Shown here in pieces: positions 8 through 39,846 of a stretch of 64,000 nucleotides of DNA. The stretch is from Elusimicrobiota bacterium. GTDB lineage: Bacteria > Elusimicrobiota > Elusimicrobia > Elusimicrobiales > UBA9959. How positions within the stretch are numbered: the first letter of the stretch is position 1; each line of letters opens with the position of its first letter. Under the pieces are notes generated by a model. The model saw only the letters and a program-made list of their open reading frames with translations, did no database searches and had not been told where the DNA came from. Position numbers and translations under genes: made by a program. Location of the stretch: positions 1 to 64,000 of the forward strand of contig JAAYVI010000117.1 of NCBI GenBank assembly GCA_012517235.1, in the 5' to 3' direction.

Positions 8-571
8 ATGTTAATAGGCGAATATTATTATTCTAAAGTAAGAGGCGATTATTCTTATGTGGATAATGGTCCGCTTTTTTTAGATCCCGGAGAAGATTAC
101 AAATTATGGTTTGAATATAATTATCCCGAGAATAGCGATAAATGGCCTAAGGATGCCGAGACGAGCTTTGAAAGCGATGTTAAGACGGATAAATGGGATT
201 TAGTGCATAAAGGGGATTTATTAAGAAGCGGTAATCCCGTATATCTTGCGATTAAATACGCGGAAGGCGATAAAGAAGGCAAGAAAGTTATATTTTTAAA
301 TAAGTTAAAGTTAATGGAATATGTCAGTAATAAGTGGAAAGAACGAGTTTTTATAGGCGATAGCGGAAGGATGGATGGCAAGGAAATAGAGATTAATTAT
401 TCCGGTATACCCGCAAGATATGAAGATGTAATATTTACAATTAACAAAAACAAAAGCGAAGACGAACTAAATATACATCTGTCAAGCGAAGGGATTCAAG
501 GCGAGATAAGATATTATTATAAGAGTAAAGAATTTGAATTTATTTCCGCCTCCGATTTTGCCGGCGAATAA
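8..571 (+). CDS. hypothetical soluble protein, possibly 5'-truncated by the window edge
   Basis: ORF open to the window start; Tyr/Asp/Glu/Lys-rich; no motif I recognise. Confidence 0.35.
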   Translation: MLIGEYYYSKVRGDYSYVDNGPLFLDPGEDYKLWFEYNYPENSDKWPKDAETSFESDVKTDKWDLVHKGDLLRSGNPVYLAIKYAEGDKEGKKVIFLNKLKLMEYVSNKWKERVFIGDSGRMDGKEIEINYSGIPARYEDVIFTINKNKSEDELNIHLSSEGIQGEIRYYYKSKEFEFISASDFAGE

Positions 572-765
572 ATATATTAAATTTTGCGACAAATAAGAAC
601 GTATTGAAAGGAAAAAGCAATGTTTCGTTGGAGGAGGCCGTCCGTGAGAAGATCCTACCTCTAAAAATTGTGTAAAAGTTTATATTAAACTATCTTAATT
701 TTGAATATTAAAGCAAGTATTTGCCTTATTTCGTATAAATATTATCTAATTCACGGTTAGTTAAT

Positions 766-794
766 TTGCCACATAATAATCAAAGAGTTATAAT
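766..794 (+). promoter_or_regulatory. sigma70-like promoter TTGCCA-N17-TATAAT about 40 nt upstream of the first gene of the complex-I-like operon
   Basis: TTGCCA at 766-771, 17-nt spacer, TATAAT at 789-794, read directly from the sequence. Confidence 0.4.
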
Positions 795-833
795 AAACTT
801 ATAAGGTTTTTTGAAAGTATTCGGATTTAATAT

Positions 834-2753
834 ATGATAATCATCCTGCTTGTCTGCGTTTTGTTTTTATCTTTTTCCTTTTTAAATTTATTTTTATCTT
901 CATATTCGAATATAAACAAAATTAATTCTTTTTTTTCTTTTTTACTTTCGGCGGCCGGATTATTTGCCTGCGCGGCGGGATTAATTTCTCAGGGCTCTTT
1001 TTTACCTTTTAAATCGCAATTTATAAATAATTATTTTTATTTCGATTATCTTTCTCATTTTTTTCTTTTGATTTTTTATATTTCTCTGTCCGCCGTTTCG
1101 CTTTATTCCGCTGGCTATTTAAAGAAAACGGAAGGAAAAAAATCTTTGAATTTCTTTTGGTTTAATTTTTATCTTCTCGCTTTTTCCATGCAGGCCGCTT
1201 TGATTTCTAAAAATTCGGTTTTATTTATTCTTTTCTGGGAATTGATGGCTTTTTCTTCTTTCTTTTTGGTTATGACAGATTTCCATAAAAAAGAAGTGCG
1301 TAAGGCAGGATTTATATATATGTGCGCAAACGGAGCCGGCGCCTTAATTTTGATAGCGGCTTTTTCTCTCTATTCCGATTCTTATTATAACTTTTCGGTC
1401 TCCTCTTATCCTTCCGCCGTTTTTTTTATGACTTTAATCGGATTCGGACTTAAAGCGGGTTTTATTCCTCTTCATATTTGGCTCCCCGAAGCTCATCCGG
1501 CCGCTCCGGGAAATATATCGGCTCTTATGAGCGGAATGATGATAAAAATGGGCATATACGGAATTTTAAGGACTCTTTCCCTGCTTTCTCCATGGAAAGA
1601 ATCCTGGGGCTGGACGATACTGATATTGGGCTCGCTCTCGGCGGTTTTGGGGATAATATTTTCTTTAGGTCAAAAAGAACTTAAGAAATTTTTGGCTTAT
1701 TCCAGCGTGGAAAACATAGGCATAATCTTAATTGCCCTGGGTTTGGCGATACTTCTCAATTGCAACGGATACTACGAATTATCCGTTATCGCTTTATTCG
1801 CGTCTTTATTTCACATTTTTAATCATTCTATTTTTAAAAATCTGCTTTTCATGTCCGCCGGGGCAATAGCTCAATCCGCCTCTACTTTGATTTTTGAGGA
1901 ATTGGGAGGTTTATCTAAAAAAATGCCTTATACGGCTTTTCTTTTTTTTATAGGCGCCTCCGCAGCCTCCGGATTGCCTTTGTTTAACGGCTTTGCCGGA
2001 GAGTTTTTGATTTATTACGTATCTTTTTCGTCTATAGGATTTAAAAGCGGAACTTTTTCGGTTTTTGCAGTATTATCCGTTTCCCTGACCGGCGCTTTGG
2101 CTCTGGCTTCTTTTGCCAAAATTTTTTCCGCGCTTTTCCATGGCGGATTAAAAAATGAAAATCATAGCGATATAAAAGACCCTTCTTTATATATGCTTTT
2201 GCCGATGGGATTTTTAGCTTTTATGTCTTTACTTGCCGGATTAATTCCATATTTGCCGTTTAAATTACTTTTTTCAAGTTTTAATTTCGCTTTTACTCAA
2301 AGCTCTCAATGGATATCGGTATCCAAATATTTACTTATGACTACTTGCTCTTACTGCGCTTTGATAATGTTTTTTTTAGCTTTTTATTATATGAGAAAAA
2401 GAATTTCCAAAGAAAACGAAACGAAAGAAGGAATTACATGGGATTGCGGATACGGCACTTCGTTACCTTCGGCAAAATACAGCGCCGCTTCTTTTTCTCA
2501 GCCCATAACCGAATTTTTTTCTTTTGACGGACAACGCTCTCGTTCTTATCCTAAAATTTTGGAATATTTCCCGAAAAGCGCTTTTTATTCGGGCAATACG
2601 AGAGCCGTATTCTACGAACTTTTTTACGCTCCGGCCGCTAAAAAAATCAAAAAAGCGGCTTCCCGCCTGTCGTTCATACAAAGCGGTCAGCTTAGATTCT
2701 ATATTTTGTATATATTTTTGACCTTGGCGGCTTTGCTTATATGGAAAATATAA
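834..2753 (+). CDS. NuoL/HyfB-like antiporter-type membrane subunit (hydrogenase-4 component B / FHL subunit 3 family)
   Basis: 639 aa polytopic protein; GFGLKAGFIPLHIWLPEAHPAAP...MSGMMIKMGIYGILR is the NuoL/HyfB signature. Confidence 0.85.
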   Translation: MIIILLVCVLFLSFSFLNLFLSSYSNINKINSFFSFLLSAAGLFACAAGLISQGSFLPFKSQFINNYFYFDYLSHFFLLIFYISLSAVSLYSAGYLKKTEGKKSLNFFWFNFYLLAFSMQAALISKNSVLFILFWELMAFSSFFLVMTDFHKKEVRKAGFIYMCANGAGALILIAAFSLYSDSYYNFSVSSYPSAVFFMTLIGFGLKAGFIPLHIWLPEAHPAAPGNISALMSGMMIKMGIYGILRTLSLLSPWKESWGWTILILGSLSAVLGIIFSLGQKELKKFLAYSSVENIGIILIALGLAILLNCNGYYELSVIALFASLFHIFNHSIFKNLLFMSAGAIAQSASTLIFEELGGLSKKMPYTAFLFFIGASAASGLPLFNGFAGEFLIYYVSFSSIGFKSGTFSVFAVLSVSLTGALALASFAKIFSALFHGGLKNENHSDIKDPSLYMLLPMGFLAFMSLLAGLIPYLPFKLLFSSFNFAFTQSSQWISVSKYLLMTTCSYCALIMFFLAFYYMRKRISKENETKEGITWDCGYGTSLPSAKYSAASFSQPITEFFSFDGQRSRSYPKILEYFPKSAFYSGNTRAVFYELFYAPAAKKIKKAASRLSFIQSGQLRFYILYIFLTLAALLIWKI

Positions 2754-3661
2754 AGATTTTTTTTCAAATACTCGTAATTTTTTCTCTGGCGCCTATTTTG
2801 CCGGGGATAATAAACAGAGTAAAAGCAAAATTTGCGGGAAGGCAAGGGAGAAGTATTTTTCAGCTATATTTCGATCTTTATAAGCTGATAAACAGAGGTA
2901 TGGTTTATCCGAAAGTTTCGGGGATTATTTTCAAGATGGCCGCTCCGTCGGTATTGGCTTTTACCGCCGCGTCGGCCGTAATTATGCCTTTTGGCGGTCA
3001 AAGCGGTTTATTGAGTTTTTCGGGAGATTTTCTTTTAATAGCTTATTTTTTGGCTTTTTCGAGATTTTTGTTAATTCTTTCGGCCATGGATACTTCTTCG
3101 GCTTTCGAAGGTATGGGGGCTTCCAGAGAAGCTCAATTCGCGGTATTTGCCGAGCCAGTTTTTTTTATGTCTATGCTGACTCTTTCGAGAATTACCGGGG
3201 AAACTTCCGTATACGGAATATTTTCAAAATTAAGTCCGGATTTATGGATACAAAACGCTCCGGTACTATCTTTAATAACGGGTTCTCTTTTCATCCTTCT
3301 TCTTTGCGAATCTTCCAGAGTTCCTTTCGACGATCCCGATACTCATCTGGAACTGACTATGATACATGAGGTTATGATACTGGATAATTCCGGAACCGAT
3401 CTGGCTTTTATGCTTTATGCTTCTTATTTAAAATTCTGGATCTATGCCTCTTTCGTATCCGCAATAATACTTCCGAGACACAGCGATTTTTTCTTTTCCG
3501 ATTCTTTTATATATATGAGCGGCCTATTTTTTACTTCCGTTGCCGCCGGAGTAACCGAATCGATAATGGCAAGAGTTCGTCTTTTGAGAGTACCTCAATT
3601 TTTGCTTGCGGCATTTTCGATTTCGGTAATGGCTTTTGTTTTTCAGGCCGTTAAAGGATGA
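2741..3661 (+). CDS. NuoH/HycD-like membrane subunit
   Basis: 306 aa and multi-TM; size and hydropathy match HycD/NuoH; overlaps the upstream gene by 13 nt. Confidence 0.75.
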   Translation: MENIKIFFQILVIFSLAPILPGIINRVKAKFAGRQGRSIFQLYFDLYKLINRGMVYPKVSGIIFKMAAPSVLAFTAASAVIMPFGGQSGLLSFSGDFLLIAYFLAFSRFLLILSAMDTSSAFEGMGASREAQFAVFAEPVFFMSMLTLSRITGETSVYGIFSKLSPDLWIQNAPVLSLITGSLFILLLCESSRVPFDDPDTHLELTMIHEVMILDNSGTDLAFMLYASYLKFWIYASFVSAIILPRHSDFFFSDSFIYMSGLFFTSVAAGVTESIMARVRLLRVPQFLLAAFSISVMAFVFQAVKG

Positions 3662-4326
3662 ATATGCATATAATATCTCAATTTCTCATTCTTGCGGTAA
3701 TTTTTTGCGACTTCTTTCTGCTTTCGTCTTACTCCACTTTTGAGCTTGTAAAATTTGCCGCCTTGCAGGGCGTTCTTACCGCTCTTTTGCCTTTGATGGC
3801 CGCCGAACATTTTGCGGCCGAAGGGATAGCTTTTGCTTTGTCGGTAATATTGCTTAAGGGATTTTTTTTCCCTTTTGTGCTTAGAAAATTGATAGTAAAA
3901 AATAATGCCTATGAAGAAAAGAAACGCGAATATTCGGGAGCTCTTTCCATAGCGGTTTATCTTTTCGTGTTTTTTGTATCGGTTTGGCTTTCTATTAAGT
4001 TAGATTTGGAAGTTAAAAGTCTGTCATGGATAATACCGGCTTCTTTTATGACCATATTTTCCGGTTTATTTTTAATAATACTTCGAACTCAAACCGTTTC
4101 TCAAATAGTGGGCTATATGGTTTTGGAAAACGGTATTTATTGTTTCGGCTCCGCCGTCTTTGTTCAACAGCCGCTTATGGTGGAAGCCGCTATATTGCTC
4201 GACATTTTTGTGGCGGTCTTTGTAATGGGAATGGCCGTTTTCCACATAGGCAAAGAATTTAATAATTCCGACAGCGAAAATTTGAACGAATTAAGAGAGG
4301 AAACGGGACAGGAGGCCGATATATGA
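3658..4326 (+). CDS. HyfE-like small membrane subunit (NuoK-like C-terminus)
   Basis: 222 aa membrane protein; intramembrane Glu in GYMVLENGIYCFG; 4-nt overlaps on both sides. Confidence 0.6.
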   Translation: MNMHIISQFLILAVIFCDFFLLSSYSTFELVKFAALQGVLTALLPLMAAEHFAAEGIAFALSVILLKGFFFPFVLRKLIVKNNAYEEKKREYSGALSIAVYLFVFFVSVWLSIKLDLEVKSLSWIIPASFMTIFSGLFLIILRTQTVSQIVGYMVLENGIYCFGSAVFVQQPLMVEAAILLDIFVAVFVMGMAVFHIGKEFNNSDSENLNELREETGQEADI

Positions 4327-5843
4327 GCTTCCTGTCTTCTTTTTTATATTTTTACGGCGCCGATAATTTCAAAGAACTTTCTTTATTTTTAATTTTAATG
4401 CCGACGGTTTTAGGCATATTGTCATTTTTGGTAAGTTCAAACGCTCAAAGACGTTCGATAATCTTCATAGGAAGTATTTTCCATTTTTTGATTACGGGAA
4501 TTTTAGTTCTTACTTTGGCAAATAGAGATTTATATGCCGTATCTAATTTTCCCGTTTTAATATTGAACTCATTTTCCGGCAATATTGAAAATGCCGTATT
4601 TTTAAGCGTAGTTTCGCTTCTGTTTTCGGGAGCTTCTTTTTATTCTTTGAAATATCTTAAATTGGAAGAAAAGAATATTAGAAAAGACGACGAGGGTTTT
4701 TTGATAAACGACGAACCAGAAGCTGTTTTTACCGGATTTATGATGTTCTTTCTTTCCGCTATGACTTTGGTATGCTTTTCCGCTCATATGGGTCTTCTTT
4801 GGGCTGCGGTTGAGGCGACCACGCTTTTTTCGGCGCCTTTGATATATTTTCATAGAAGCAGGAGATCTTTGGAAGCCACCTGGAAATATTTGGTTGTTTG
4901 TTCGGTAGGTATAGCCATAGCATTGCTGGGAACTTTTTTTCTTTCTCTCTCAGGCGGAAAAAGCGGAGGATCTTTGTATTTTTACGATATTATTTCTCAA
5001 GCTAAAAATTTTAATCCTTTGTGGCTAAAACTTTCTTTTATCTTTTTCTTCGTAGGTTACGGCACTAAAATGGGCCTGGCTCCTTTGCATACTTGGCTTC
5101 CGGACGCTCACAGCGAAGCTCCTTCCGTAGTTTCCGCTCTTTTATCGGGAGCGCTTCTAAACTGCGCCTTTTTAGGGATATGGAAGTCTTACTCTTTTAT
5201 GCGTATCGGCGGTTTGGGCGAATTTTCTTCTTCAATAATGATTTTTTTCGGAATATTTACCGTTTTTATTTCCGCTCTTTTTATCTTAAATCAAAAGGAA
5301 TATAAGAGAGCTTTGGCTTATTCCAGCGTGGAAAATATGGGGCTTATGTGTCTGCTTTTGGGTATTTCTTTTTATGTCGGCAGAGAAGCGGAAAAACTTG
5401 TTTTTTTAAGCGCGATAGGGCATTCTTTGATCAAATCCGGCATGTTTTTTATAGCCGGCATGGTTTTGTTTTACTATAAAAGTAAAAAGTACGCCGAAGT
5501 CGGACCCATGTTTTCCAAAACGCCTTTCACCGCGGGCATGTGGTTTTTAGGATTTATTCTTTTATCCGGAGCTCCGCCTTCTCCGTTGTTTTTCCCGAAA
5601 CTTTTCATATTCAAATTTATGCTTTTAGGAGGAAAATATTTTATTTCCGCTTTGATGATTTTTTTGTTTATTATCATATTTGCCGGTCTTGGAAAAATAT
5701 TTTATGAAACGATTTTTTCGGGAGCTAATAATCTGCAGGAAATTAAGGAAGATAAAACGATATTATTTCCGTCGCTATCGTTTTTTTCTATTTCTATTTT
5801 TATTTTTTTTGCGTTTTTTTATTTTTCTCGAGGAATAAAATGA
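4323..5843 (+). CDS. NuoN/NuoM/HyfF-like antiporter-type membrane subunit
   Basis: 506 aa; GLAPLHTWLPDAHSEAPSVVSALLSG motif. Confidence 0.85.
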   Translation: MSFLSSFLYFYGADNFKELSLFLILMPTVLGILSFLVSSNAQRRSIIFIGSIFHFLITGILVLTLANRDLYAVSNFPVLILNSFSGNIENAVFLSVVSLLFSGASFYSLKYLKLEEKNIRKDDEGFLINDEPEAVFTGFMMFFLSAMTLVCFSAHMGLLWAAVEATTLFSAPLIYFHRSRRSLEATWKYLVVCSVGIAIALLGTFFLSLSGGKSGGSLYFYDIISQAKNFNPLWLKLSFIFFFVGYGTKMGLAPLHTWLPDAHSEAPSVVSALLSGALLNCAFLGIWKSYSFMRIGGLGEFSSSIMIFFGIFTVFISALFILNQKEYKRALAYSSVENMGLMCLLLGISFYVGREAEKLVFLSAIGHSLIKSGMFFIAGMVLFYYKSKKYAEVGPMFSKTPFTAGMWFLGFILLSGAPPSPLFFPKLFIFKFMLLGGKYFISALMIFLFIIIFAGLGKIFYETIFSGANNLQEIKEDKTILFPSLSFFSISIFIFFAFFYFSRGIK

Positions 5844-7285
5844 AAGATTTTATAACGGGAAATTTGGAAGAAATAGAGTTTTTAGACAGAGATGTTTTTG
5901 TAAAAAGACTATCCGGAGAACTTTCTTTGGGCGCGGGAGTCCTTTCTTATTTTTCGGTTAAGTATAAAGAAGGAATTAAACTTTTTGTGTTTTTACTAAA
6001 AAAATCCGGAGAAATAGAGTTTTTTTCATGTAAAGCCGATAGTAAGATGCCTTCTTTGACTCCTTTCTATCCGCAGCTTCATCTTTTTGAGAGAGAAATA
6101 TCGGAAAAGACCGGAATTATTTTCGAGGGCCATCCTTTGCCAAATCCCGTAAGATACGAAAACGGTCTTACGGCCTCTTCCGGCTCATATTTCAAAGTAC
6201 AAGGAAACGAAATTCACGAAGTGGCCGTCGGGCCCGTTCATGCGGGCGTAATAGAGCCCGGACATTTTAGATTTCAATGTTTGGGCGAAAACGTATTTCA
6301 TTTGCAGATAGAATTGGGCTATCAGCATAGAGGCATAGAAAATGCGGTTATCTCCGTAGATAAAAAAAGAATGCTTCCTATGATAGAGACCGCGGCCGGA
6401 GACACTTCCATAGGCCATGCCTGGACTTACGCAAAAATAACCGAAGCGCTTTGCGAAGTTCAAATATCTAAGAGAGCTTCTTTTTTGAGAGGCGCTGCTT
6501 TGGAACTCGAAAGATTGGCAAATCATATAGGAGACTTAGGCGCGCTTAGCGGAGACGTCGCATATTTGCCTACCGCAAATTTTTGCGGAAGAATAAGAGG
6601 CGAAATATTAAATATTACCGCTTTGCTCTGCGGAAACAGATTCGGAAGAAATTTTATAATTCCGGGAGGAGTGGAGTATGACGTCGACGATAAACTTATA
6701 AAAGAGATAATGTCTCGCTTAGATTCGGCTTACGAAGACGCCGTTTCCGCCATATCTCTTTTATGGGAAAGAAAAACCGTTTTGGACAGATTTGAAAAAA
6801 CGGGAATCGTTTCTTTGGAAAAAGCTTTAAAACTCAGACTTGTCGGTCCCGCGGGAAGGGCCAGCGGAATAGACTGCGATTTAAGAAAAATATTCAAAAG
6901 CGAGCCTTACGAAGATTTTGAAAGCGAACCTTTGACTCTTAACGGAGATGTCTTTTCCAGAGCGTATATTAGATGGATGGAAATAAAAAAATCTTATAAA
7001 TTAATCAAAAATTGGCTTTCGAGATTGCCGCAAGGCGAAATAACTTTGGAAATAGGGCCGTTTAAGAAAAATTCTTTCGCTTTGGCTTTGACCGAAGGGT
7101 GGCGCGGAGAAATATGCCACGTATGTTTTACCGACGATAAAGGAGAAATATCTTTTTACAAAATAAAAGATCCTTCTTTTCATAATTGGCAGGGTCTTGC
7201 TATGGCTTTGAGGAACGCTCAAATTTCCGATTTTCCGCTTTGTAATAAGAGTTTTAATTTGTCTTATTGCGGACACGATTTATGA
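5840..7285 (+). CDS. fused NuoC-NuoD / HycE-like large subunit lacking the canonical [NiFe]-binding cysteine motifs
   Basis: N-terminal NuoC motif (EREISEKTGIIFEGHP); NuoD/large-subunit core (GPVHAGVIEPGHFRF, YQHRGIE); ETAAGDTSIGHAWTY sits where RxCGxCxxxH is expected; the C-terminus ...DFPLCNKSFNLSYCGHDL has no DPCxxC. Confidence 0.8.
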   Translation: MKDFITGNLEEIEFLDRDVFVKRLSGELSLGAGVLSYFSVKYKEGIKLFVFLLKKSGEIEFFSCKADSKMPSLTPFYPQLHLFEREISEKTGIIFEGHPLPNPVRYENGLTASSGSYFKVQGNEIHEVAVGPVHAGVIEPGHFRFQCLGENVFHLQIELGYQHRGIENAVISVDKKRMLPMIETAAGDTSIGHAWTYAKITEALCEVQISKRASFLRGAALELERLANHIGDLGALSGDVAYLPTANFCGRIRGEILNITALLCGNRFGRNFIIPGGVEYDVDDKLIKEIMSRLDSAYEDAVSAISLLWERKTVLDRFEKTGIVSLEKALKLRLVGPAGRASGIDCDLRKIFKSEPYEDFESEPLTLNGDVFSRAYIRWMEIKKSYKLIKNWLSRLPQGEITLEIGPFKKNSFALALTEGWRGEICHVCFTDDKGEISFYKIKDPSFHNWQGLAMALRNAQISDFPLCNKSFNLSYCGHDL

Positions 7286-7292
7286 GGAGAAA

Positions 7293-8048
7293 ATGATAAA
7301 AGAAATATTGGCCAGAATAAAACAAGGATATAGGACTTTGCCTTTTCCTTTTGAAAAAATAAAATTATCTGAAAGGTATAAAGGATATCCCAAATTGGAT
7401 TTTTCAAATTTGAAAGAAAGCGAAATAGAAGAGCTTTTATCGGTTTGTCCCAACTCATGTATTTATAAGGATGCGGGAAAAATAAATTTAGACTTAGGCA
7501 ATTGCACTTTTTGCGCTATTTGCGAAAAAAAATTACCTCAAGCCGTCAAATTTTCAAAAGACTGGTCTATGGCTTTTTCTTCCAGAGAGGACTTGATTTT
7601 ATCTCAAGATACTAAGAAAAAATCATATGTTCTAAGAGAAGAAATAAGAAAACTTTTCGGCCGTTCATTAAGGCTCAGACAGGTAAGCGCAGGCGGATGC
7701 AATGCCTGCGAAGCCGATTGCAATGTTCTGGGAACTCCCGCTTTCGATATGGGCAGATTCGGCATACAATTTGTAGCTTCTCCGAGACATGCCGACGGAA
7801 TTTTGATAACCGGTCCCGTAAGCGAAAATATGTATACCGCTTTGATAAAGACATATCGGGCCGTGCCGGATCCGAAAATAGCCATAGCGGTAGGCGCATG
7901 CGCCATAGGCGGCGGAATTTATAGGAATTTGCCGAAAGTCAAAGGCATATCGGAGGAAATAAATATAGATCTTTATATTCCCGGATGTCCGCCCAATCCC
8001 ATTACCATTCTCGACGCCCTTTTGCGCTTTATCGGAAGAATAAAATAA
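7293..8048 (+). CDS. ferredoxin-like N-terminal domain fused to a NuoB/HycG-like small subunit
   Basis: N-terminal CPNSC...CTFCAIC; C-terminal GGCNACEAD, GACAIGGG and PGCPPNP, which are the [4Fe-4S] ligands of NuoB and hydrogenase small subunits. Confidence 0.8.
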   Translation: MIKEILARIKQGYRTLPFPFEKIKLSERYKGYPKLDFSNLKESEIEELLSVCPNSCIYKDAGKINLDLGNCTFCAICEKKLPQAVKFSKDWSMAFSSREDLILSQDTKKKSYVLREEIRKLFGRSLRLRQVSAGGCNACEADCNVLGTPAFDMGRFGIQFVASPRHADGILITGPVSENMYTALIKTYRAVPDPKIAIAVGACAIGGGIYRNLPKVKGISEEINIDLYIPGCPPNPITILDALLRFIGRIK

Positions 8049-8171
8049 TATTGTTTTCGCGGTTATATTAAATTGGATAATTTATTATTGATTATGGTTT
8101 ATCTTTTATTTACAAAACTATTAGAGCTATCTTGAATAATGTATAATATTTTTTACTAAGGGGAAGAATTT

Positions 8172-10421
8172 ATGAAGATTATTTTTGCTATTTTCATATT
8201 CATCTTTAATTTAAATCTCTATTCTATCGAGACATTTACATATAAGGAAATATCAAAAGATATTTCTAAACAGATAAAAGAATCGGAAAAGAATAATATA
8301 AAAGTTGCTGTCTTTGATTTTGCATATTATGACGGAAAAATATCTCCCGCGCTCAGGCAAATATCCGAGTCTTTAACCATAAATTTGGCTAAAAATTCTA
8401 TAACCATAGTTGAAAGAAATCAAATTGAAAAAATTCTCCAGGAGAAGAAGCTTCAAATGTCCGGCATGTTCGACGAAAAAACAGTAACCGAAGTGGGAAC
8501 ATTTGTGGGAGCGGAAGCCATTTTGACCGGCACGGTCGAAGATATGGAAAATGGCAAGTCTAAAATTAATATAAAAGTTCTTAACGTAAAAACTTCCGTC
8601 ATAATAGCGGCCGGGGAATATATTATAGATAGGACCTGGGAGTTGTATAAGCCCAAGCAAGAACCTGAAAAAAAAGAAACAAAGATATATTCCGAAATAA
8701 AATTTGAAATAGAAAAACTTCCAAAATTAGAATCTTCATCGTTTCATATGGAGGAAATACACTTAGATTTTAATAATATGGATATAGATAAGCTGGAAAA
8801 ATACAACGAAATAACAGAACTTGAGAAAAAGACTACGGACTATCTTTTAATAGCCGAGAAATGGGATATATTCGGCAAAGAAGTGCCCGAATACCGTGAG
8901 ATTTCGATTAAAAGAGCAAATGAGTTGAGAGATCATTATAATAAAATCATAAAATTTGAAGAAGATAAAAAGAAGATAAGAGAACAGATGAGAGCGGATT
9001 TTGAAAAACTGATGAGGATATTGAAACTAAAAATAATTTCTTCGGATAAAAAAGATGAATTTTGCCAAAAATTTATTGATGCGTATTCAGAATACGAATT
9101 TGAAGAATTCAGTAAATATTATTTAAAACTTAGGCGGTATATGATTCGCCAGTGCATAGATGAAGATAAAGTGGGTTTTGCTTTATGCTACGAAGACGGA
9201 AGTATAGCGATGACAAATGTCGATCGGTATAATAACGGTTTTTCAATGGAAGGTCTAATACCAGCACTTTACTGGGTAAATGGAAGCCGTAAATATGGGC
9301 CGGTTTTAGATATACATAGCGCGCGTCCTGATTATATGACTTCAGTATGGGAACCGTGTTATTTTTTTATAGATAAAAAAGGCAGTATTAAAATTCCTCC
9401 CGACGGCAGCTGTATATATTCAGACGTACGAAATTTTAGTAATGGACTGGCCATGGTGAGAGAAAAATATTCCGGGAAATGGGGTTATGTCGATAAAAAT
9501 GGCAAGCTGATTATAGACTATAAGTTTGACGACTATTTTTTGAGTGATTTTTCAGACGGTTTCGCCACTGTTAGATTAAACAGGAAGTGGGGGCTTATAG
9601 ATAAAACCGGAAACACTGTTATACCTTTCAAATATGATTACATTTCCGATGCCGCAAGATGTCCATATTATGTAAAATTAAACGATAAGACTTTTTACAT
9701 CAATAGAAAAGATCAAATAGTGCAGGATAATAAGAAAAATAAAATGTATGCCATAAGAGATGAAGATGGAAATCTTACGACTTCTTATATTTTTGAAGAT
9801 ATAGAAACTTGCGACAACCATTTTCAGAAGGTGAAAAAAAACGATAAATACGGGTTTTATTTAAAGAAAGGTAAGGAAATAATTAAACCAAAATATGATT
9901 GGGCCGGATGTTATTTTAATTCTCTTGCGGCAGTATGCGGTCAAAAGTGCGGCTTTGTGGATGAGAACGGAAAAGTTGTAATTCCGATTAAATATGACGG
10001 TATAACCAGTTTTATGGGTGAAACCGCTGCGGTTAAAGAAAATAATAAGTGGCTTTTAATAAACAAAGAGGGAGAGGTTTTAAAAGAATTACAAACTTAT
10101 GATACTATTTCCAATTTAGATGATGAATTTTTTGTCGTATCAAAAAATAAAAAATACGGTTTAATCGATACAAGCGGAAATAAAATTACCGCGTTAAAAT
10201 ACGATGGTATTCCACTAAATGGTATTGATTTTATTGCGGTAGAATTGAACGGGAAATACGGTTTTATAAGAAAAAAAGACTCGGCTGAGATAACGCAAAT
10301 AAAATATGATAACTGGTCATTTGACGGCATAGATTTCATATCTGTAGAATTTATGGGCAAAAAAGGAATTGTCGATTTATTCGGCAGAGAGTTATACGCG
10401 GATGAAGACAAAAAAAAGTAA
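8172..10421 (+). CDS. secreted multidomain protein: CsgG/LpoB/FlgO-like N-terminal domain, central coiled coil, C-terminal WG (KWG/KYG) beta repeats
   Basis: signal peptide MKIIFAIFIFIFNLNLYS; N-terminal domain KVAVFDF...IVERNQIEKILQEKKLQMSG...AEAILTGTV; at least seven repeats of the type KWGYVDKNGKLIIDYKFD and KYGLIDTSGNKITALKYD. Confidence 0.7.
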   Translation: MKIIFAIFIFIFNLNLYSIETFTYKEISKDISKQIKESEKNNIKVAVFDFAYYDGKISPALRQISESLTINLAKNSITIVERNQIEKILQEKKLQMSGMFDEKTVTEVGTFVGAEAILTGTVEDMENGKSKINIKVLNVKTSVIIAAGEYIIDRTWELYKPKQEPEKKETKIYSEIKFEIEKLPKLESSSFHMEEIHLDFNNMDIDKLEKYNEITELEKKTTDYLLIAEKWDIFGKEVPEYREISIKRANELRDHYNKIIKFEEDKKKIREQMRADFEKLMRILKLKIISSDKKDEFCQKFIDAYSEYEFEEFSKYYLKLRRYMIRQCIDEDKVGFALCYEDGSIAMTNVDRYNNGFSMEGLIPALYWVNGSRKYGPVLDIHSARPDYMTSVWEPCYFFIDKKGSIKIPPDGSCIYSDVRNFSNGLAMVREKYSGKWGYVDKNGKLIIDYKFDDYFLSDFSDGFATVRLNRKWGLIDKTGNTVIPFKYDYISDAARCPYYVKLNDKTFYINRKDQIVQDNKKNKMYAIRDEDGNLTTSYIFEDIETCDNHFQKVKKNDKYGFYLKKGKEIIKPKYDWAGCYFNSLAAVCGQKCGFVDENGKVVIPIKYDGITSFMGETAAVKENNKWLLINKEGEVLKELQTYDTISNLDDEFFVVSKNKKYGLIDTSGNKITALKYDGIPLNGIDFIAVELNGKYGFIRKKDSAEITQIKYDNWSFDGIDFISVEFMGKKGIVDLFGRELYADEDKKK

Positions 10422-12673: not shown

Positions 12674-13474
12674 ATGATGGAAGAAAATATAATTAAAATT
12701 TTAAGCGATGCTATAAGCGAAAGAAAAAATGCGGCTTTTATAACGATAATTTCATCGGGCGGATCCACTCCCAGAGACGCGGGTTCCAAAATGATAGTTT
12801 ATGAAAACGGCTCGATAGCCGGGACCATAGGCGGGGGGAAAATAGAAGCTCTTGCGATAAAAACCGCTCTGGATTGTCTTAAAAAAGGGGAAGGCGGAAA
12901 ATTCGTTTTCGATTTGACTCCCAAAGGCATAGGTATGGCCTGTATGGGTAAAGTGGAAATTTTTATAGACATATACAAAACTCCTTTGAAGGTTTTTATT
13001 TGCGGAGGCGGTCATGTGGCTAAACAATTGGCAAAGGTTCTGGATATAGCCGGCTTTCCTTATGCCGTTGCGGACGACAGAGAAGAATTTGCAAATAAGA
13101 ATAATTTTCCGGGCGCTTACGAAATAATAAACGAATTTCCCGACAAGGCTTTCAAAAAAGCGAAAATAGATTCCGATACTTATATAGTCATAATGACCAG
13201 AGGTCATATGCTGGACGCCGAGTGTTTGATAGAAGCGGTTAAAACAAAGGCCGCTTATATAGGAATGATAGGCAGCGCTTCGAAAGTTAGAACTGTTATG
13301 TCGGATCTTAAGAAGAAAGGCGTGAAAATAGATAAAAGAGTCTATTCTCCTATAGGATTGGATTTGGGCGGTAAAACTCCGGGAGAAATAGCCGTATCCG
13401 TAGCGGCAGAAATACTTAAAATACATTACGGCCGAAGCGGAAATCATATGAGCGTAAATTTGGAGGCAAAATGA
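12674..13474 (+). CDS. xdhC: XdhC/CoxI-family molybdenum-cofactor insertion chaperone
   Basis: N-terminal AAFITIISSGGSTPRDAGSKMIV; Rossmann-like VFICGGGHVAKQLA; 4-nt overlap with the downstream Mo-subunit gene. Confidence 0.8.
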   Translation: MMEENIIKILSDAISERKNAAFITIISSGGSTPRDAGSKMIVYENGSIAGTIGGGKIEALAIKTALDCLKKGEGGKFVFDLTPKGIGMACMGKVEIFIDIYKTPLKVFICGGGHVAKQLAKVLDIAGFPYAVADDREEFANKNNFPGAYEIINEFPDKAFKKAKIDSDTYIVIMTRGHMLDAECLIEAVKTKAAYIGMIGSASKVRTVMSDLKKKGVKIDKRVYSPIGLDLGGKTPGEIAVSVAAEILKIHYGRSGNHMSVNLEAK

Positions 13475-15741
13475 GCAAAGATTTATTTTCTTTCGTCGGC
13501 AAATCATTGGAAAGAGTAGACGGCGCGGTTAAAGCCGAAGGCAAAGCTCTTTACGGAGACGACATATCTTTCCCGAATATGATTTACGCGGCGGCGGTTA
13601 GAAATCCCAAACCGAGAATAGAAATAAGAAAAATGGACGATTCTTTGGCAAAAAAAATAAAAGGATATTTCGGCATAGTTTCTTTTAAGGATATAAAAGG
13701 CAAAAACAGCTGGCCTTTGGTTATGAACGATTATCCTTTTTTACCGGAAAAGGAAGCGAAATTTTACGGAGAAACCTTAGCTTTGGTTTTGGCGGAAAAT
13801 CAAAGAACGGCAAAAAAAGCCGCGGCTTGTGTCAGATTGGATTATAAAGAATTGCCTTTTATAGACGATCCTTTGAAAGCTTTGGAAAAAAAATCTTTGA
13901 AAATATACGGCAAAGATAATATCATATCTTCTTTCAAAATAATAAAGGGCGATGCGGATAAAGCTTTTAAAGACTGCGATGTGGTAATAGAAAAAGAATT
14001 TAGGACAAATTATCAAGTCCATGCTTATTTGGAAACTCAAACCGCTACGGCCGTTCCGGAACCCGACGGTTCTATTACGGTTTATTCTTCTACTCAATGT
14101 CCTTTTTACGTATTGGACGCCGTCGCGGCGGCTTGCGGTTTGCCCAATAATAAGGTCAAGGTAATACAAACCGTTACCGGAGGCGGATTCGGCGGTAAAG
14201 AAGACGTGCCGGCTTTGGTTGCGGCTCATGCGGCTATTTGCGCTTTGAAATTTAACCGTCCGGTAAGGCTTGCCTATGACAGAAAGGAAGATTTTATGAG
14301 TATGTCGAAAAGACATCCTTCTTGGGCCAGAGTAAAATACGGCGCCGATAAAAACGGAAAAATAAAGGCTTGTAAAGTTAAATATGTTTTGGACGGCGGC
14401 GCTTATGCTACTTTGTCGCCGATAGTTTTATGGAGAGGGACGGTTCATGCGGCCGGTCCTTATAAAATAGAAAACGTGTTCATAGAAACTTATGCAGCCG
14501 CGACAAATAAAGTCCCCTGCGGAGCTTATAGAGGATTCGGTCAGCCTCAAATATGCTTCGCGCAGGAATCTTTGATAGACGATCTGGCCGAAAAATTGGG
14601 AATAGATCCGATAGATTTAAGACTTAAAAATATGATTCAAAGCGGAGATAAAACCGCTACGGGTCAGAAAATTGACGAATCCTGCGGATTAAAAGAGCTT
14701 ACGGAAATAGTAAGAAAAAAATCAAGATGGGATAAATCCGAAGTTAAAATAAACGGAGACAAAAGAAGAGCTTTGGGTTTTTCTTGCGCTTATTACGGAG
14801 TCGGACTCGGAGCGAAAGGCAGATATTTGGATAGAGCGGGAGCTTTCGTAAACATATACAGAGACGGTTCGGTTCAGGTAAATGTCGGCAATACCGAAAT
14901 GGGACAAGGCGCTTTAACCGTTCTTTCTCAAATAGCCGCGGAAACTCTTAATGCTCCGATGAAAAATATAAAACTTGCCGAAGTAGATACCTCAAAAGTG
15001 CCTGACAGCGGACCCACGGTAGCCAGTAGAACCACTTTGATGAGCGGAAATGCGATAATAGAAGCTTGCCTGCCTTTGAGAGAAAATATATTCTCGGCCG
15101 CCGCCGAACTTTTAAAAGCCGGTAAAAATAAAATTACCGCTTACGGCGGATTTTTTTACTTCGGGAAAAAGAAAATTTCATTCGAAGAAGCGGTAAAGGA
15201 ATGCTGGTCTAAAAGATTAAAGATGAGCGAACAAGGCTGGTATGCGGCTCCCAATACCACATTTGACATAAATAACGGTCAAGGCAATGCTTATGTTATC
15301 TACTCTTATAGCGCCGATATAGCCGATGTGGAAGTGGATATAAAAACCGGCGAAAAGACAGTTCATAAGATATACGCCGCTTACGATGTAGGGCGCATAA
15401 TAAATCCCAAATTGGCTCACGCTCAAGCTCACGGCGGCATACTTCAAGGTATGGGCTGGGCAATAATGGAAAATTTAATAGTAAAAGACGGAATAATGAA
15501 AAATCCTAATTTTACCGATTATGTCCTTCCCATTTCTACCGACGCCCCTCAGTACGATATAAGTTTCTCGGAGAAGCTCTACAAACACGGGCCTTATAAG
15601 GCTAAAGGTATGGGAGAAGTGCCTTTGATAGGGGTGGCTGCGGCGGTAAGAAATGCGGTTAAAAGAGCTTGCGGAGTTTCTCTGACTTATTGTCCTATGA
15701 TATCGGAAAAAACGCTCAAGACGATAAACGACAAAAAATGA
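13471..15741 (+). CDS. xanthine dehydrogenase-family molybdopterin-binding large subunit (set 1)
   Basis: 756 aa; VTGGGFGGKE and GQGALTVLSQIAAETL motifs. Confidence 0.9.
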   Translation: MSKDLFSFVGKSLERVDGAVKAEGKALYGDDISFPNMIYAAAVRNPKPRIEIRKMDDSLAKKIKGYFGIVSFKDIKGKNSWPLVMNDYPFLPEKEAKFYGETLALVLAENQRTAKKAAACVRLDYKELPFIDDPLKALEKKSLKIYGKDNIISSFKIIKGDADKAFKDCDVVIEKEFRTNYQVHAYLETQTATAVPEPDGSITVYSSTQCPFYVLDAVAAACGLPNNKVKVIQTVTGGGFGGKEDVPALVAAHAAICALKFNRPVRLAYDRKEDFMSMSKRHPSWARVKYGADKNGKIKACKVKYVLDGGAYATLSPIVLWRGTVHAAGPYKIENVFIETYAAATNKVPCGAYRGFGQPQICFAQESLIDDLAEKLGIDPIDLRLKNMIQSGDKTATGQKIDESCGLKELTEIVRKKSRWDKSEVKINGDKRRALGFSCAYYGVGLGAKGRYLDRAGAFVNIYRDGSVQVNVGNTEMGQGALTVLSQIAAETLNAPMKNIKLAEVDTSKVPDSGPTVASRTTLMSGNAIIEACLPLRENIFSAAAELLKAGKNKITAYGGFFYFGKKKISFEEAVKECWSKRLKMSEQGWYAAPNTTFDINNGQGNAYVIYSYSADIADVEVDIKTGEKTVHKIYAAYDVGRIINPKLAHAQAHGGILQGMGWAIMENLIVKDGIMKNPNFTDYVLPISTDAPQYDISFSEKLYKHGPYKAKGMGEVPLIGVAAAVRNAVKRACGVSLTYCPMISEKTLKTINDKK

Positions 15742-15837
15742 TGGGATATTTTAATTTTTGAGGATATGCCTGTTACATAAGTTAAATGAAAAAAAACGGT
15801 AAAATATGCTATTATTAATCTTTGGAGGTTTCCATAT

Positions 15838-16986
15838 ATGTTTAAAAAATTAATTTTGTCTTTGATTTTGTTGTCTTCTTCCGTTTATGCTCAAGACTCT
15901 TACGATAAATTGGCTTCGGAACTGTCTTCAAAATCCGAAGGTATAAAAAAGTTGGCCATAATACCCTTTTCCTACGCCGATAATACTTCTTCCACAAAAG
16001 ACGGCGCCGTCATAGCGGAAAGATTGACAATGAAGCTTATTAATATGCAGAAGTTTGAAATAATAGAAAGAAGCGTATTGAATAAAGTTTTGGACGAATT
16101 AAAACTTCAAAATTCGGGAGCCATAGACGCCGGCAGCGCGAAAGAACTCGGAAAAGTTTTGGGCGTGGACGCTCTTATAACCGGAACTTTGATACCTACC
16201 GCTTCCGGAATAGAAGTTAATGCCAGAGTTATAAAAACGGAAACCGCTCAAGCCATAGCCGCTTCTCAAGTTACCGTACAGAAGGATTGGTACGGCGGCG
16301 ACGTACAGGCTATGCCTCAAAAGACGGAATATCAACAGCCGCAAGCTCAAACGCAGAAACAGCCGATATCTCGAGTAAGAAGCCCTAACGAATACGGATT
16401 TTTTGACGTTATGGTAGGCGCCGGTTCTCAAACGGTGGATATAAAATGGGATACTACAAAATTCGGCGGTTTAGAAATGAACGCTCTCACGGCCAGCGGA
16501 GGCGGACCAATAGGCCTTAGGGTCGGCGGCTTCGGCAAAGGCGTGGTAGGCGGAGATTTTGAATTTTCGGTATCTAAACATTATACCGACGCTCAAAAAG
16601 GCACAATAACTTTTCCTCTTATAGCCAATGTCAATTATCCAGCCGGATTAATAGACGCCACTTCCATAGGCCTTAGCGGAGACTTGCTTTTTAGAACTTT
16701 GACAAAAGCTCAATTCTATTTGGGTATAGGTTTGGGACTGTCTATAAATAATATACAATCTACCGTAATAAAAGACTACTATAATAAGCTTTTGAACGAG
16801 ACCGCCGTAGGATTTATGTTTAGAGTACCGATAGGTTTGAGATTTAACGCCGATAATGTCACTTTCTTTATGGAATATAGGGCGGAAATTAACGCTACGA
16901 GCTTTAACAGAGGATTCGGAAACGAAACTAATAATCTTACTTTCAACGGTTCGAGATTTGTTTTCGGAGTGGGATCTAAATTCTAA
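15838..16986 (+). CDS. outer-membrane protein: periplasmic CsgG/LpoB-like N-terminal domain plus Gly-rich beta-barrel-like C-terminal half
   Basis: signal peptide ending AQD; N-terminal domain paralogous to that of the 8172-10421 protein; C-terminal residue is Phe (RFVFGVGSKF). Confidence 0.6.
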   Translation: MFKKLILSLILLSSSVYAQDSYDKLASELSSKSEGIKKLAIIPFSYADNTSSTKDGAVIAERLTMKLINMQKFEIIERSVLNKVLDELKLQNSGAIDAGSAKELGKVLGVDALITGTLIPTASGIEVNARVIKTETAQAIAASQVTVQKDWYGGDVQAMPQKTEYQQPQAQTQKQPISRVRSPNEYGFFDVMVGAGSQTVDIKWDTTKFGGLEMNALTASGGGPIGLRVGGFGKGVVGGDFEFSVSKHYTDAQKGTITFPLIANVNYPAGLIDATSIGLSGDLLFRTLTKAQFYLGIGLGLSINNIQSTVIKDYYNKLLNETAVGFMFRVPIGLRFNADNVTFFMEYRAEINATSFNRGFGNETNNLTFNGSRFVFGVGSKF

Positions 16987-16988
16987 AA

Positions 16989-17453
16989 ATGAAAAAATTT
17001 CCGCTTAGCTGCGAAATTAACGGTAAAAAAATAAAAAAGGAAATAGATTCTTCTTTAAGACTAATAGATTTCATAAGAGAAGATATGGGCCTTAAAGGCA
17101 CCAAAGAAGGCTGCGGCGAAGGCGAATGCGGTGCCTGTATGGTTTTGCTCGACGGTAAAGCCGTAAATTCCTGTCTTATGATGGCCGTTCAAATACATGG
17201 CAAGAAATTGGTTACCATAGAGGGAATACACGAACATAAATACGGCAAAGAACTTCAAGATTCCTTTGTAAAAGAGGCCGCCGTGCAATGCGGTTTTTGT
17301 ACGCCGGGTTTTATAATAGCCGCTCAGGAAATACTTGCAAAAAATCCCAAAGCCTCTTTGGAAGAAATTAAAGAAGGTCTTGCCGGTAATTTATGCAGAT
17401 GCACCGGATATGAAAATATTTTTAAAGCCGTAGATAAAGCTCGTAAGAAGTAA
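16989..17453 (+). CDS. xanthine dehydrogenase-family [2Fe-2S] small subunit (set 1)
   Basis: CGEGECGACMV...SCLM and QCGFCTPGFII...GNLCRCTGY. Confidence 0.9.
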   Translation: MKKFPLSCEINGKKIKKEIDSSLRLIDFIREDMGLKGTKEGCGEGECGACMVLLDGKAVNSCLMMAVQIHGKKLVTIEGIHEHKYGKELQDSFVKEAAVQCGFCTPGFIIAAQEILAKNPKASLEEIKEGLAGNLCRCTGYENIFKAVDKARKK

Positions 17454-17471
17454 AATTTACTATTTGAGAAT

Positions 17472-20033: not shown

Positions 20034-20045
20034 TTTGGAGGAAAA

Positions 20046-35732: not shown

Positions 35733-36110
35733 TTAGGCCGCTTTCCAAAGGCCGTGAAGGTTGCAGTATTCTCTCGCTTCAACTTTTTCCGCTTTAACGC
35801 AAAAAAAAGCTTCCGGTTTTTCTCCGGGTTTTAGGAATTTTCTATGAGAAACTCCGTCGGCTATGAGTTCTATCCATTCTATGTAATGCTTGTCTTCCAT
35901 GGGATGAGCCACCGAACCGACTTTAACGAGATATCCTTCCGCCGTTTTTTCTATTACCGGCACGTGTTTTTCCTTCGCGCCGTCGGTAGTATTTTCTTTA
36001 AAGTATTTCATTTCTTTTCCGCAGCATACCAAAGCACCGGCTCCGGTGTGGAGAACTTCTACGATATTTCCGCATACTTCGCATTTGTAAATACCTTTTA
36101 ATTGAGTCAT
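35733..36110 (-). CDS. dfx: desulfoferrodoxin (two-iron superoxide reductase)
   Basis: N-terminal desulforedoxin CEVCGN...CCG followed by a neelaredoxin domain. Confidence 0.9.
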
Positions 36111-36119
36111 TTTTCCTCC

Positions 36120-36683: not shown

Positions 36684-36692
36684 TTTATCTCC

Positions 36693-37274: not shown

Positions 37275-37363
37275 TTTGCCTCCGTATTAGAGTATAAACG
37301 ACTCTGCTTAGAATTTTATACCGATTTCCCTTAATAATATTTTAGCAATTTGCGAAAATAAAA

Positions 37364-39837: not shown

Positions 39838-39846
39838 ATTATCTCC

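Follow-up and report, generated by a model that had tools for sequence, protein, structure and literature searches.

The ehr operon

The sequence studied here comprises the first 64,000 nucleotides of contig JAAYVI010000117.1 (GenBank assembly GCA_012517235.1) from a metagenome-assembled genome (MAG) of an Elusimicrobiota bacterium; we refer to this whole stretch as the window. Between positions 834 and 8048, six open reading frames (ORFs) on the forward strand, ehrA, ehrB, ehrC, ehrD, ehrL and ehrS, encode a complex of the Ehr family, whose members have group 4 [NiFe] hydrogenases and complex I as relatives (Table 1). A first-pass annotation made from the sequence alone had placed six co-directional, mostly overlapping genes of these subunit types at the same coordinates, and the ORF calls and the Pfam and NCBIfam profiles used for the family assignments agree with it. 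Successive frames overlap by 13, 4, 4 and 4 nucleotides, and a gap of 7 nucleotides separates ehrL from ehrS. All six proteins score below the equivalog cut-offs of NCBIfam, so they are relatives, not orthologues, of the Hyf and Nuo subunits. Compared with the two closest relatives, the ratio of nonsynonymous to synonymous substitution rates (dN/dS) of every one of the six genes falls within 0.05–0.18; dS is saturated. The six genes form a coupled unit under purifying selection.

In the literature, Ehr denotes energy-converting, or Ech, hydrogenase-related complexes without NiFe-binding residues; the original description, from Geobacter sulfurreducens, named the subunits EhrA-1, EhrB, EhrC, EhrD, EhrL and EhrS (GSU0739-45; Coppi 2005; Marreiros et al. 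2013). Redox-coupled charge translocation is suspected for such complexes. Ehr has already been reported in Elusimicrobia. Proteomes of G. sulfurreducens contain all Ehr subunits, at higher levels on formate. The window operon is an ordinary, intact member of this family; the family itself, the loss of the NiFe ligands and the occurrence in Elusimicrobia have all been published.

The family is large. The window EhrL is 100% identical to an Elusimicrobiota MAG protein named "hydrogenase" at NCBI, and thousands of homologues with more than 50% identity occur in Elusimicrobia, Planctomycetota, Verrucomicrobiota, Hydrogenedentota and other phyla. Both IEPGHFRF and CNKSFNLS are encoded in at least 596 species genomes (one per species) from more than 10 phyla. 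From these genomes we sampled 80 loci (L001–L080) and set seven Elusimicrobia loci (L081–L087) beside them, which makes 87 loci in all. The gene order A-B-C-D-L-S is complete in 52 of the 80, most of the others being cut by contig ends, and a tandem second ehrA is found in 19. The family loci include Geobacteraceae, Geomonas, Geothrix, Leptospiraceae, Desulfovibrionaceae and Cloacimonadaceae.

The large subunit and the former [NiFe] site

The catalytic centre of group 4 hydrogenases is held by two cysteine pairs, in motifs L1 and L2 of the large subunit. In a residue-level alignment to solved structures, L1 of MbhL (ERMCGICSFSH) and of HycE (DRVCGICGFAH) lies over ETAAGDTSIGH of EhrL. The arginine has become threonine, the first cysteine is A186 and the second T189; the glycine (G187) and the histidine (H193) are kept. 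At L2, SLDPCYSCTDR of HycE lies over SFNLSYCGHDL, which is followed directly by the stop codon, and the third and fourth cysteines are replaced by S475 and G478. The last residue of EhrL falls where mature HycE has its C-terminus. The alignment places no conserved cysteine pair at either motif and bears out what had been read from the letters at first, namely the exchange of cysteine for alanine and threonine in RxCGxCxxxH with the histidine kept, and the lack of a DPCxxCxxH/R motif and of a cleavable C-terminal extension.

These replacements are fixed in all 120 closest homologues of EhrL, and neither RxCGxCxxxH nor DPCxxC was found in any of the L-type ORFs detected at the 80 related loci; a chance pattern is therefore excluded. 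G187, D188 and H193 are invariant in the same 120 homologues, as is the C-terminal FPLCNKSFNLSYCG.DL. The near-invariant motifs at the old site read IEPGHFRFQC, AGDT and CNKSFNLSYCGxDL. In the 80-genome sample, C468 is changed to Asn or Val and C477 to Ser or Ala in 8 of 79 large subunits, which retain the core NKSF(N/S)LSY.G.D. The statement that the large subunit had lost its ligands holds for all four cysteines, but the invariant motifs and the low dN/dS speak against decay. From these patterns the site is remodelled, not degraded, its ligands having been replaced by near-invariant motifs under purifying selection. The former NiFe pocket is a real site under strong constraint with a signature of its own, and the family-invariant residues predicted to line it are E139, G187-D188-T189, H193, N469-K470 and S475-Y476.

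E139, itself invariant, aligns with E21 of MbhL, the key proton-transfer residue of the hydrogenase, which is not present in MBS or complex I. We also considered C147, C468 and C477 as ligands of a new metal cluster. This is less likely, as C468 and C477 vary in the large subunits mentioned above and are mostly missing from the Hyq-type proteins described below; frequent without being universal, they argue against an obligatory cysteine-ligated metal centre.

The best fold match of EhrL in the PDB is HycE (7z0s_E, TM-score 0.83), followed by the fused NuoCD of Escherichia coli. An AlphaFold2 model of EhrL alone reaches a predicted template modelling score of 0.88, with the predicted local distance difference test (pLDDT) below 50 exactly at residues 130–141 and 469–481. 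Such low values would be expected if these invariant parts of the chain take up a fixed shape only on contact with partner subunits or a ligand. No site geometry can be derived from this model, since the segments of the site are its low-pLDDT parts.

The small subunit and the electron wire

The small subunit joins a NuoI-like ferredoxin domain to a NuoB-like domain. This fusion had been thought unusual; it is instead the norm of the family, as all 52 aligned small subunits are about 250 residues long and contain both domains. The first-pass annotation also stated that four cluster cysteines are retained, and these are C136, C139, C203 and C232, conserved in the window EhrS and in all 120 of its closest homologues.

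The N-terminal domain differs from that of most relatives. Between 47 and 49 of the 52 family small subunits show an eight-cysteine pattern, Cx4CxxCxxxCP ... CxxCxxCxxxCP. According to the assignment made for MbsN, which is said to apply to MBH, NDH and complex I as well, the distal cluster is bound by the first three cysteines of motif 1 together with the last cysteine of motif 2, and the remaining four cysteines of the domain bind the medial cluster. In the window EhrS the distal positions are occupied by leucine and isoleucine (Table 1). Among the window protein and its 120 closest homologues, the distal ligands are absent in 29 of 121. The loss is seen in every Elusimicrobia locus examined, with replacement residues that vary between sub-lineages, and members of other phyla retain all eight cysteines. 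It takes out exactly four ligands and no others. What had been called degenerate CxxxC/CxxCxxC motifs are indeed short of cysteines, but the pattern is a clean, Elusimicrobia-specific loss of the distal [4Fe-4S] ligands. To judge from ligand conservation, the wire in Elusimicrobia is shortened in a lineage-specific manner from three [4Fe-4S] clusters to two, the medial and the proximal one.

The membrane arm

The membrane subunits were compared across the same 52 family members. EhrA retains E136 in transmembrane helix (TM) 5, K207 in TM7, K238 in TM8, the group H327/H331/K335, and E390 in TM12, all of them conserved. In EhrB the acidic loop VPFDDPDTHLELTMIHEV is conserved, as are E157 and E176 in EhrC and E164, K249 and K371 in EhrD. 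EhrD departs from the family consensus at S363 (for His), G366 (for Asn) and K426 (for Glu, in TM12). Both lysine and glutamate occur at this TM12 position in complex I subunits, and the last exchange need not impair function. On the whole, the residues expected for ion pumping are retained in the membrane arm.

In the PDB, EhrA is closest to HycC (7z0s_C, 9e-50), with HycC and MbhH on top of its matches. EhrB matches HycD (5e-27), MbhM (3e-12) and MbsM (5e-4).

Comparison with known systems

Ehr of Geobacter has the same subunit set and order, a large subunit without both CxxC motifs and the four-cysteine cluster of the small subunit. Five Geobacteraceae loci of our sample (L005, L007, L022, L025 and L038) carry the signature motifs at 47–51% identity to the window. 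Orthology to the founding G. sulfurreducens cluster is inferred through these and other Geobacteraceae (Geomonas, Citrifermentans), in which a duplicated ehrA matches the 'EhrA-1'/'ehrA-2' naming; a homology search seeded with the Geomonas EhrL recovered no G. sulfurreducens protein named EhrL. The window differs in having a single ehrA where many Geobacteraceae and other loci have two, and in lacking both the distal [4Fe-4S] ligands and a regulator-like gene with HTH_17 and PTS_EIIA_2 domains that is described below.

A sister family with a reported physiology is Hyq, the 'endo-hydrogenase' of Azorhizobium caulinodans (hyqRBCEFGI), a core complex I homologue with six structural subunits in the Ehr order; both CxxC motifs are missing from its fused NuoC-NuoD large subunit too. 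In aerobic diazotrophs it forms part of the nif regulon. Genetic work and gas measurements have connected hyq with H2 evolution in microaerobic conditions and with the re-use of H2 released by nitrogenase; the enzyme has been neither purified nor analysed for metals, and to the authors themselves a NiFe site is 'uncertain, if not unlikely'. HyqG has three conserved cysteines at 258, 491 and 497 (A. caulinodans numbering). Measured by the distance from the C-terminus, only C468 of the window EhrL matches one of them (C491). HyqI consists of a NuoB domain without the NuoI-like domain, with its CxxC at residues 55/58; EhrS by comparison has a NuoI-like extension of 135 residues before the CxxC.

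At L005 and L035 a second, paralogous six-gene cluster of the Hyq type stands beside Ehr. Its large subunits are about 38% identical to the window EhrL and show the motifs xGDTT/SxAH and (C/V)NKSFNxSYSGxD without the Ehr cysteines, ending in ...CNKSFNASYSGHDL or ...VNKSFNLSYSGTDR. In a rough neighbour-joining tree the Hyq-type cluster is the sister of Ehr. The L005 small subunit has no ferredoxin domain and carries C55/C58, with the numbering reported for HyqI, and that of L035 has a one-cluster ferredoxin domain like the window EhrS. The cysteine patterns suggest a graded series, with a two-cluster ferredoxin domain in Ehr, one cluster in Elusimicrobia Ehr and in the L035 paralogue, and no domain in Hyq.

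Formate hydrogenlyase and hydrogenase-4 of E. coli (Hyc/Hyf, group 4a [NiFe] hydrogenases; PDB 7Z0S) provide the best matches in structure and sequence for EhrA (HycC), EhrB (HycD) and EhrL (HycE) and a strong one for EhrS (HycG/HycF). They share the fused NuoC-NuoD large subunit, the E21-type glutamate and the CxxC of the proximal cluster. Ehr of the window differs from them in the lack of NiFe ligands and of a C-terminal extension, in the fusion of the HycF and HycG parts, and in having no HycB/FdhF module.

The sulfane-sulfur reductase MBS (Mbx) of Pyrococcus furiosus (PDB 6U8Y) is likewise hydrogenase-derived; NiFe catalysis was lost, the cavity was repurposed and a three-cluster wire is fed by ferredoxin. 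MBS keeps two of the four NiFe cysteines and has a three-cysteine catalytic proximal cluster, no E21 equivalent and a full Mrp module. In contrast, the window Ehr has none of the NiFe cysteines, a proximal cluster with four cysteines, the glutamate and only four membrane subunits, with antiporter-related parts of the HyfB/E/F type. MBS is also the weakest PDB match (5.7e-14 for the large subunit, 5e-4 for the anchor). Of the initial "Ehr/Mbx-type" assignment, the first half stands and the second is to be dropped.

With the Q-module of complex I/NDH-1 (NuoB, C, D, H, I), Ehr shares the fold, an iron–sulfur wire to a pocket at the D/B/H interface, and antiporter-like subunits; it differs in lacking NuoA, NuoJ and a separate NuoK. 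In ferredoxin-fed NDH-1, electrons enter at the clusters corresponding to the NuoI-like domain, and by analogy this enzyme is perhaps the nearest functional counterpart of Ehr.

Genomic neighbourhood and candidate partners

Hydrogenase maturation genes had been found missing from the window, and Pfam scans of its 56 ORFs of at least 120 residues, which leave intergenic gaps of at most 1.1 kb, likewise detected no Hyp or HycI family. Neighbours were clustered across the 80 loci after removal of shadow ORFs overlapping the operon. Neither ferredoxin nor formate dehydrogenase genes recurred among them, nor did hydrogenase maturation genes or any further redox partner. Since the family as a whole has no conserved redox partner, the donor is most simply taken to be a soluble carrier.

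A single neighbour is frequent, a protein of about 235 residues with HTH_17 and PTS_EIIA_2 domains, encoded directly upstream of ehrA in 43 of the 80 loci and in many phyla. Neither the window nor any of the Elusimicrobia loci has it. This protein may be the counterpart of Azorhizobium hyqR, and it suggests control of the operon by phosphorylation of the PTS(Ntr) type.

In Elusimicrobia the surroundings are different. Downstream of ehrS the window carries two sets of genes of the xanthine dehydrogenase (Xdh) family, which NCBIfam matches best to PucD/XdhA, with scores under the cut-offs. A weak candidate for a lineage-specific partner is the first set. In the window, three unrelated genes lie between ehrS and XdhC. 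In L083 and L084 (71% identity of the large subunit), XdhC and the molybdenum (Mo) subunit follow ehrS directly. The longer of these loci, L083, also has the iron–sulfur and FAD subunits downstream and a MobA/MocA-like gene directly before ehrA. L081 and L082 (73% identity) have a MocA-like gene and XdhC without the Xdh catalytic subunits. MobA and MocA proteins carry out the nucleotidylation of the molybdenum cofactor, so in the closest relatives the Ehr operon is flanked by genes for the maturation of this cofactor.

Some accompanying genes may be noted. A gene for a CsgG/FlgO/LpoB-like lipoprotein sits between the Mo and iron–sulfur subunits of the first Xdh set, a position kept in L083 and L081. 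A related domain forms the N-terminus of the WG-repeat protein of 749 residues encoded directly after ehrS. A TldD/PmbA-like pair separates the two Xdh sets.

Three more distant Elusimicrobia loci (L085–L087) have another set beside Ehr, upstream in two and downstream in one, which encodes a DAO+Fer2_BFD protein, a small ORF, a Pyr_redox_2 protein and a DUF1667 protein. This set resembles an anaerobic glycerol-3-phosphate-dehydrogenase-like set.

Farther downstream, the window encodes ResB/CcsA proteins for cytochrome c maturation, the cytochrome c nitrite reductase proteins NrfH and NrfA, a DUF438-hemerythrin-PAS protein and a NapH-like membrane iron–sulfur protein. The NrfH/NrfA genes indicate that the source genome probably has quinol-linked nitrite ammonification, and a quinone pool is likely given the quinol-dependent NrfH/NrfA and the NapH-like protein.

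Proposed mechanism and alternatives

Ehr is a minimal complex-I-like machine that descends from group 4 hydrogenases of the formate hydrogenlyase type. Its sequence marks the window complex as something other than a [NiFe] hydrogenase. The alignments and the conserved six-gene architecture point, as the first-pass annotation had proposed, to an Ehr-type module without [NiFe] ligands, for which redox-linked ion translocation is more likely than [NiFe] hydrogenase activity. Our preferred interpretation is an oxidoreductase between a low-potential donor and a membrane acceptor, coupled to ion translocation, with menaquinone favoured as the acceptor. We assign a probability of about 0.5 to the scheme as a whole.

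The two-subunit peripheral arm (EhrL and EhrS) holds a [4Fe-4S] wire ending at the EhrL pocket of the former NiFe site. In the proposed scheme, electrons of a low-potential cytoplasmic donor would enter at the NuoI-like domain. The donor would be reduced ferredoxin in most phyla, and in Elusimicrobia perhaps a docked flavin or iron–sulfur dehydrogenase such as the neighbouring Xdh-type enzyme. From the medial cluster, electrons would pass to the proximal cluster and on to an acceptor at the EhrL/EhrS/EhrB interface, most likely membrane menaquinone, with proton uptake through the retained Glu139. The free energy would drive export of H+ or Na+ through EhrA, EhrD and EhrC, and the reverse direction would also be possible. 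Most Ehr hosts are quinone-containing respirers. Menaquinone is favoured because of this and because the organism evidently uses quinols.

Several points weigh against this interpretation. The quinone head-group ligands of complex I, His38 and Tyr87 of Nqo4, correspond to I138 and G187 in EhrL. The proximal cluster of EhrS is bound by CxxC and not by the tandem cysteines of quinone reducers. In the PDB search EhrB had no match to NuoH of complex I at E<=0.01, its anchor being of the HycD/MbhM type. No ferredoxin gene adjoins Ehr at any of the 87 loci, and the Xdh and DAO neighbourhoods are lineage-specific. Ehr has also been reported in genomes of Margulisbacteria and Saganbacteria in which no quinone biosynthesis pathway was detected. 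In vivo uptake and evolution of H2 is claimed for the sister family Hyq. Finally, we found no biochemical characterization or measured activity of any Ehr complex in the literature available to us up to 2026.

How the wire is fed and what it reduces can be read in other ways. In a variant of the menaquinone scheme, the missing distal cluster would mean that EhrS takes its electrons directly from the Xdh iron–sulfur/FAD subunits, in an Xdh–Ehr supercomplex comparable to formate hydrogenlyase, and that in other Elusimicrobia the partner is the DAO-BFD/Pyr_redox_2/DUF1667 enzyme. The synteny of Ehr, XdhC, XdhL, XdhS and XdhM at 71% identity fits this idea, together with the MocA-like gene directly upstream of ehrA, the DAO-BFD trio on either side of Ehr in the three other loci, and the restriction of the cluster loss to Elusimicrobia, since other phyla keep the cluster. 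A formate dehydrogenase–Ehr association has moreover been proposed for Margulisbacteria. Yet the genes intervening between Ehr and XdhC in the window, the lack of Xdh catalytic subunits in L081/L082 and of any such partner in the 80 loci of other phyla, and the chance that the synteny is mere inheritance among close relatives leave direct docking possible but doubtful. Rather improbable, in our view, is a pocket which, as in MBS, reduces a different and possibly hydrophobic substrate, for instance polysulfide or another small oxidant; the reaction would take place on the proximal cluster or close to it and be coupled to ion pumping. MBS is a precedent for the reuse of a former NiFe cavity, the pocket residues are unique to Ehr and Hyq, the quinone ligands of complex I are missing, and Ehr occurs in genomes reported without quinone biosynthesis; against it stand the full four-cysteine ligation of the proximal cluster, where MBS has a three-cysteine catalytic one, the presence of Glu139, absent in MBS, and the lack, at the loci examined, of sulfur-metabolism genes associated with the operon.

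Two further alternatives concern the nature of the site itself. The invariant EhrL residues (Glu139, Asp188, His193, Cys468/477 and others) could bind another catalytic centre that oxidizes or evolves H2, as claimed for Hyq on genetic and physiological grounds. The Hyq-type cluster is the sister of Ehr in the rough tree, shares GDT and NKSFNxSY with it and adjoins it at L005 and L035; the E21-equivalent glutamate and the hydrogenase-type CxxC are retained, and formate hydrogenlyase is the nearest match for the complex as a whole. We nevertheless hold a cryptic hydrogenase to be unlikely, for all four NiFe cysteines are gone, the additional cysteines vary and are mostly missing in the Hyq type, the window has no hyp or hycI gene, the Hyq claim itself comes without purified enzyme or metal analysis and with its authors' doubts, and Geobacter workers consider Ehr incapable of H2 oxidation. 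At the other extreme, the genes might be the non-functional relic of a hydrogenase operon on which selection has relaxed, an assumption made for Geobacter KN400; a paper of 2026 terms Ehr 'nonfunctional', and the window EhrS has lost its distal ligands. This is scarcely credible and we reject it on dN/dS and motif invariance: the six ORFs are intact and translationally coupled, the motifs of the site are invariant across phyla, the cluster loss is limited to exactly four ligands, and all subunits appear in G. sulfurreducens proteomes, with more on formate.

A bolder idea, which we consider improbable as a whole, takes the near-invariant EhrL residues (E139, G187-D188-T189, H193, N469-K470, S475-Y476 and, mostly, C147/C468/C477) as an undescribed catalytic or cofactor site common to Ehr and Hyq, and the two-cluster variant of Elusimicrobia as a minimized form that plugs directly into a dehydrogenase. 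If true, Ehr and Hyq would add a fourth chemical solution to the three of the complex I superfamily (NiFe, quinone and the MBS cluster), and if the Azorhizobium data are right, maybe a hydrogen-converting site without the canonical four-cysteine NiFe centre.

Ehr is among the commonest complex I relatives without an assigned reaction, and evolutionary schemes place it between complex I and the hydrogenases. New to us are the distal-cluster deletion in Elusimicrobia, the neighbourhoods of the Xdh and DAO types, the HTH-EIIA regulator and the Hyq-type paralogue at Ehr loci. These additions are modest, yet they make the question of Ehr function more tractable. Elusimicrobia offer a natural two-cluster variant beside candidate donor dehydrogenases, and the graded series of ferredoxin domains links Ehr to Hyq, the only relatives with a reported physiology. 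Pipeline names such as "hydrogenase" or "NADH-quinone oxidoreductase subunit C" for Ehr proteins mislead metabolic reconstructions.

Other features of the window

Table 1. Positions of the ehr genes, their sites and neighbouring features (numbered in the window unless another locus is named)
Feature	Position	Strand	Remarks
ehrA, HyfB/HycC/NuoL-like antiporter-type subunit	834–2753	+	639 residues; Proton_antipo_M/HyfB
ehrB, HycD/NuoH-like anchor of the peripheral arm	2741–3661	+	306 residues; NADHdh/HycD-like
ehrC, HyfE-like, C-terminal half NuoK-like	3658–4326	+	222 residues; HyfE (Oxidored_q2)
ehrD, HyfF/NuoN-like antiporter-type subunit	4323–5843	+	506 residues; Proton_antipo_M/HyfF
ehrL, fused NuoC-NuoD/HycE-like large subunit, no [NiFe] ligands	5840–7285	+	481 residues; Complex1_30kDa+Complex1_49kDa
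ehrS, small subunit	7293–8048	+	251 residues; NuoI-like+Oxidored_q6; residues 1–~110 NuoI/HycF-like, ~116–251 NuoB/HycG-like
EhrL β1–β2 loop, residues 131–147	6230–6280	+	GPVHAGVIEPGHFRFQC; invariant in the 120 closest homologues
EhrL former L1 motif, residues 183–193	6386–6418	+	ETAAGDTSIGH; from alignment to solved structures
EhrL former L2 motif and C-terminus, residues 462–481	7223–7282	+	ISDFPLCNKSFNLSYCGHDL; signature NKSFNLSY.G.D; no C-terminal extension
EhrS ferredoxin-like region, residues 40–81	7410–7535	+	distal positions 40, 45, 48, 81 are L, I, L, L; medial C52, C71, C74, C77 kept
EhrS proximal [4Fe-4S] ligands C136-x-x-C139, C203, C232	7698–7988	+	hydrogenase-type CxxC (CNAC), not the tandem CC of complex I
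Best sigma-70-like promoter match	766–794	+	TTGCCA-17-TATAAT (11/12); weak evidence; in the 262-bp gap (572–833) before ehrA
WG-repeat protein gene	8172–10421	+	
Candidate lineage-specific partner (weak)	12674–18314	+	XdhC, Xdh-family Mo, CsgG-like lipoprotein, [2Fe-2S], FAD; syntenic with Ehr in closest relatives
First Xdh set	XdhC 12674–13474; Mo 13471–15741; [2Fe-2S] 16989–17453; FAD 17472–18314	+	
CsgG/FlgO/LpoB-like lipoprotein gene	15838–16986	+	
TldD/PmbA-like pair	18342–21731	+	
Second Xdh set	FAD 21905–22738; [2Fe-2S] 22735–23235; Mo 23247–25571	+	
Oxidative/nitrosative stress cluster	35733–40248	−	
ResB/CcsA to NapH-like region	40429–46451	+	
tRNA-Phe(GAA)	49335–49409	−	
Glycine cleavage system and lipoate-protein ligase	54394–61706	−	
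Hyq-type six-gene cluster beside Ehr	L005 13257–20575; L035 ~218–9974		second, paralogous cluster
HTH_17+PTS_EIIA_2 gene	L016 4096–4803; L007 2076–2753		GIAIPHVRN motif; upstream of ehrA
MobA/MocA-like NTP_transf_3 gene	L081 169–780; L083 4209–4802		directly upstream of ehrA
DAO+Fer2_BFD / small ORF / Pyr_redox_2 / DUF1667 set	L085 1276–4269; L086 1370–4363; L087 14818–17802		beside Ehr

The ORF upstream of ehrA in the window (8–571, 187 residues) has no family match. Promoter-like sites near ehrA are no more numerous than expected from shuffled sequence, and the terminator scan is likewise at background.

The stress cluster comprises an Rrf2 regulator, hybrid cluster protein, DUF2400, rubrerythrin, peroxiredoxin and desulfoferrodoxin. 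A mechanically called ORF (48957–49418) crosses the tRNA-Phe gene, so the true start of this response regulator lies further downstream. The glycine cleavage system near the end of the window is complete, with the T and H proteins, a two-part P protein and an L-protein-like dihydrolipoyl dehydrogenase.

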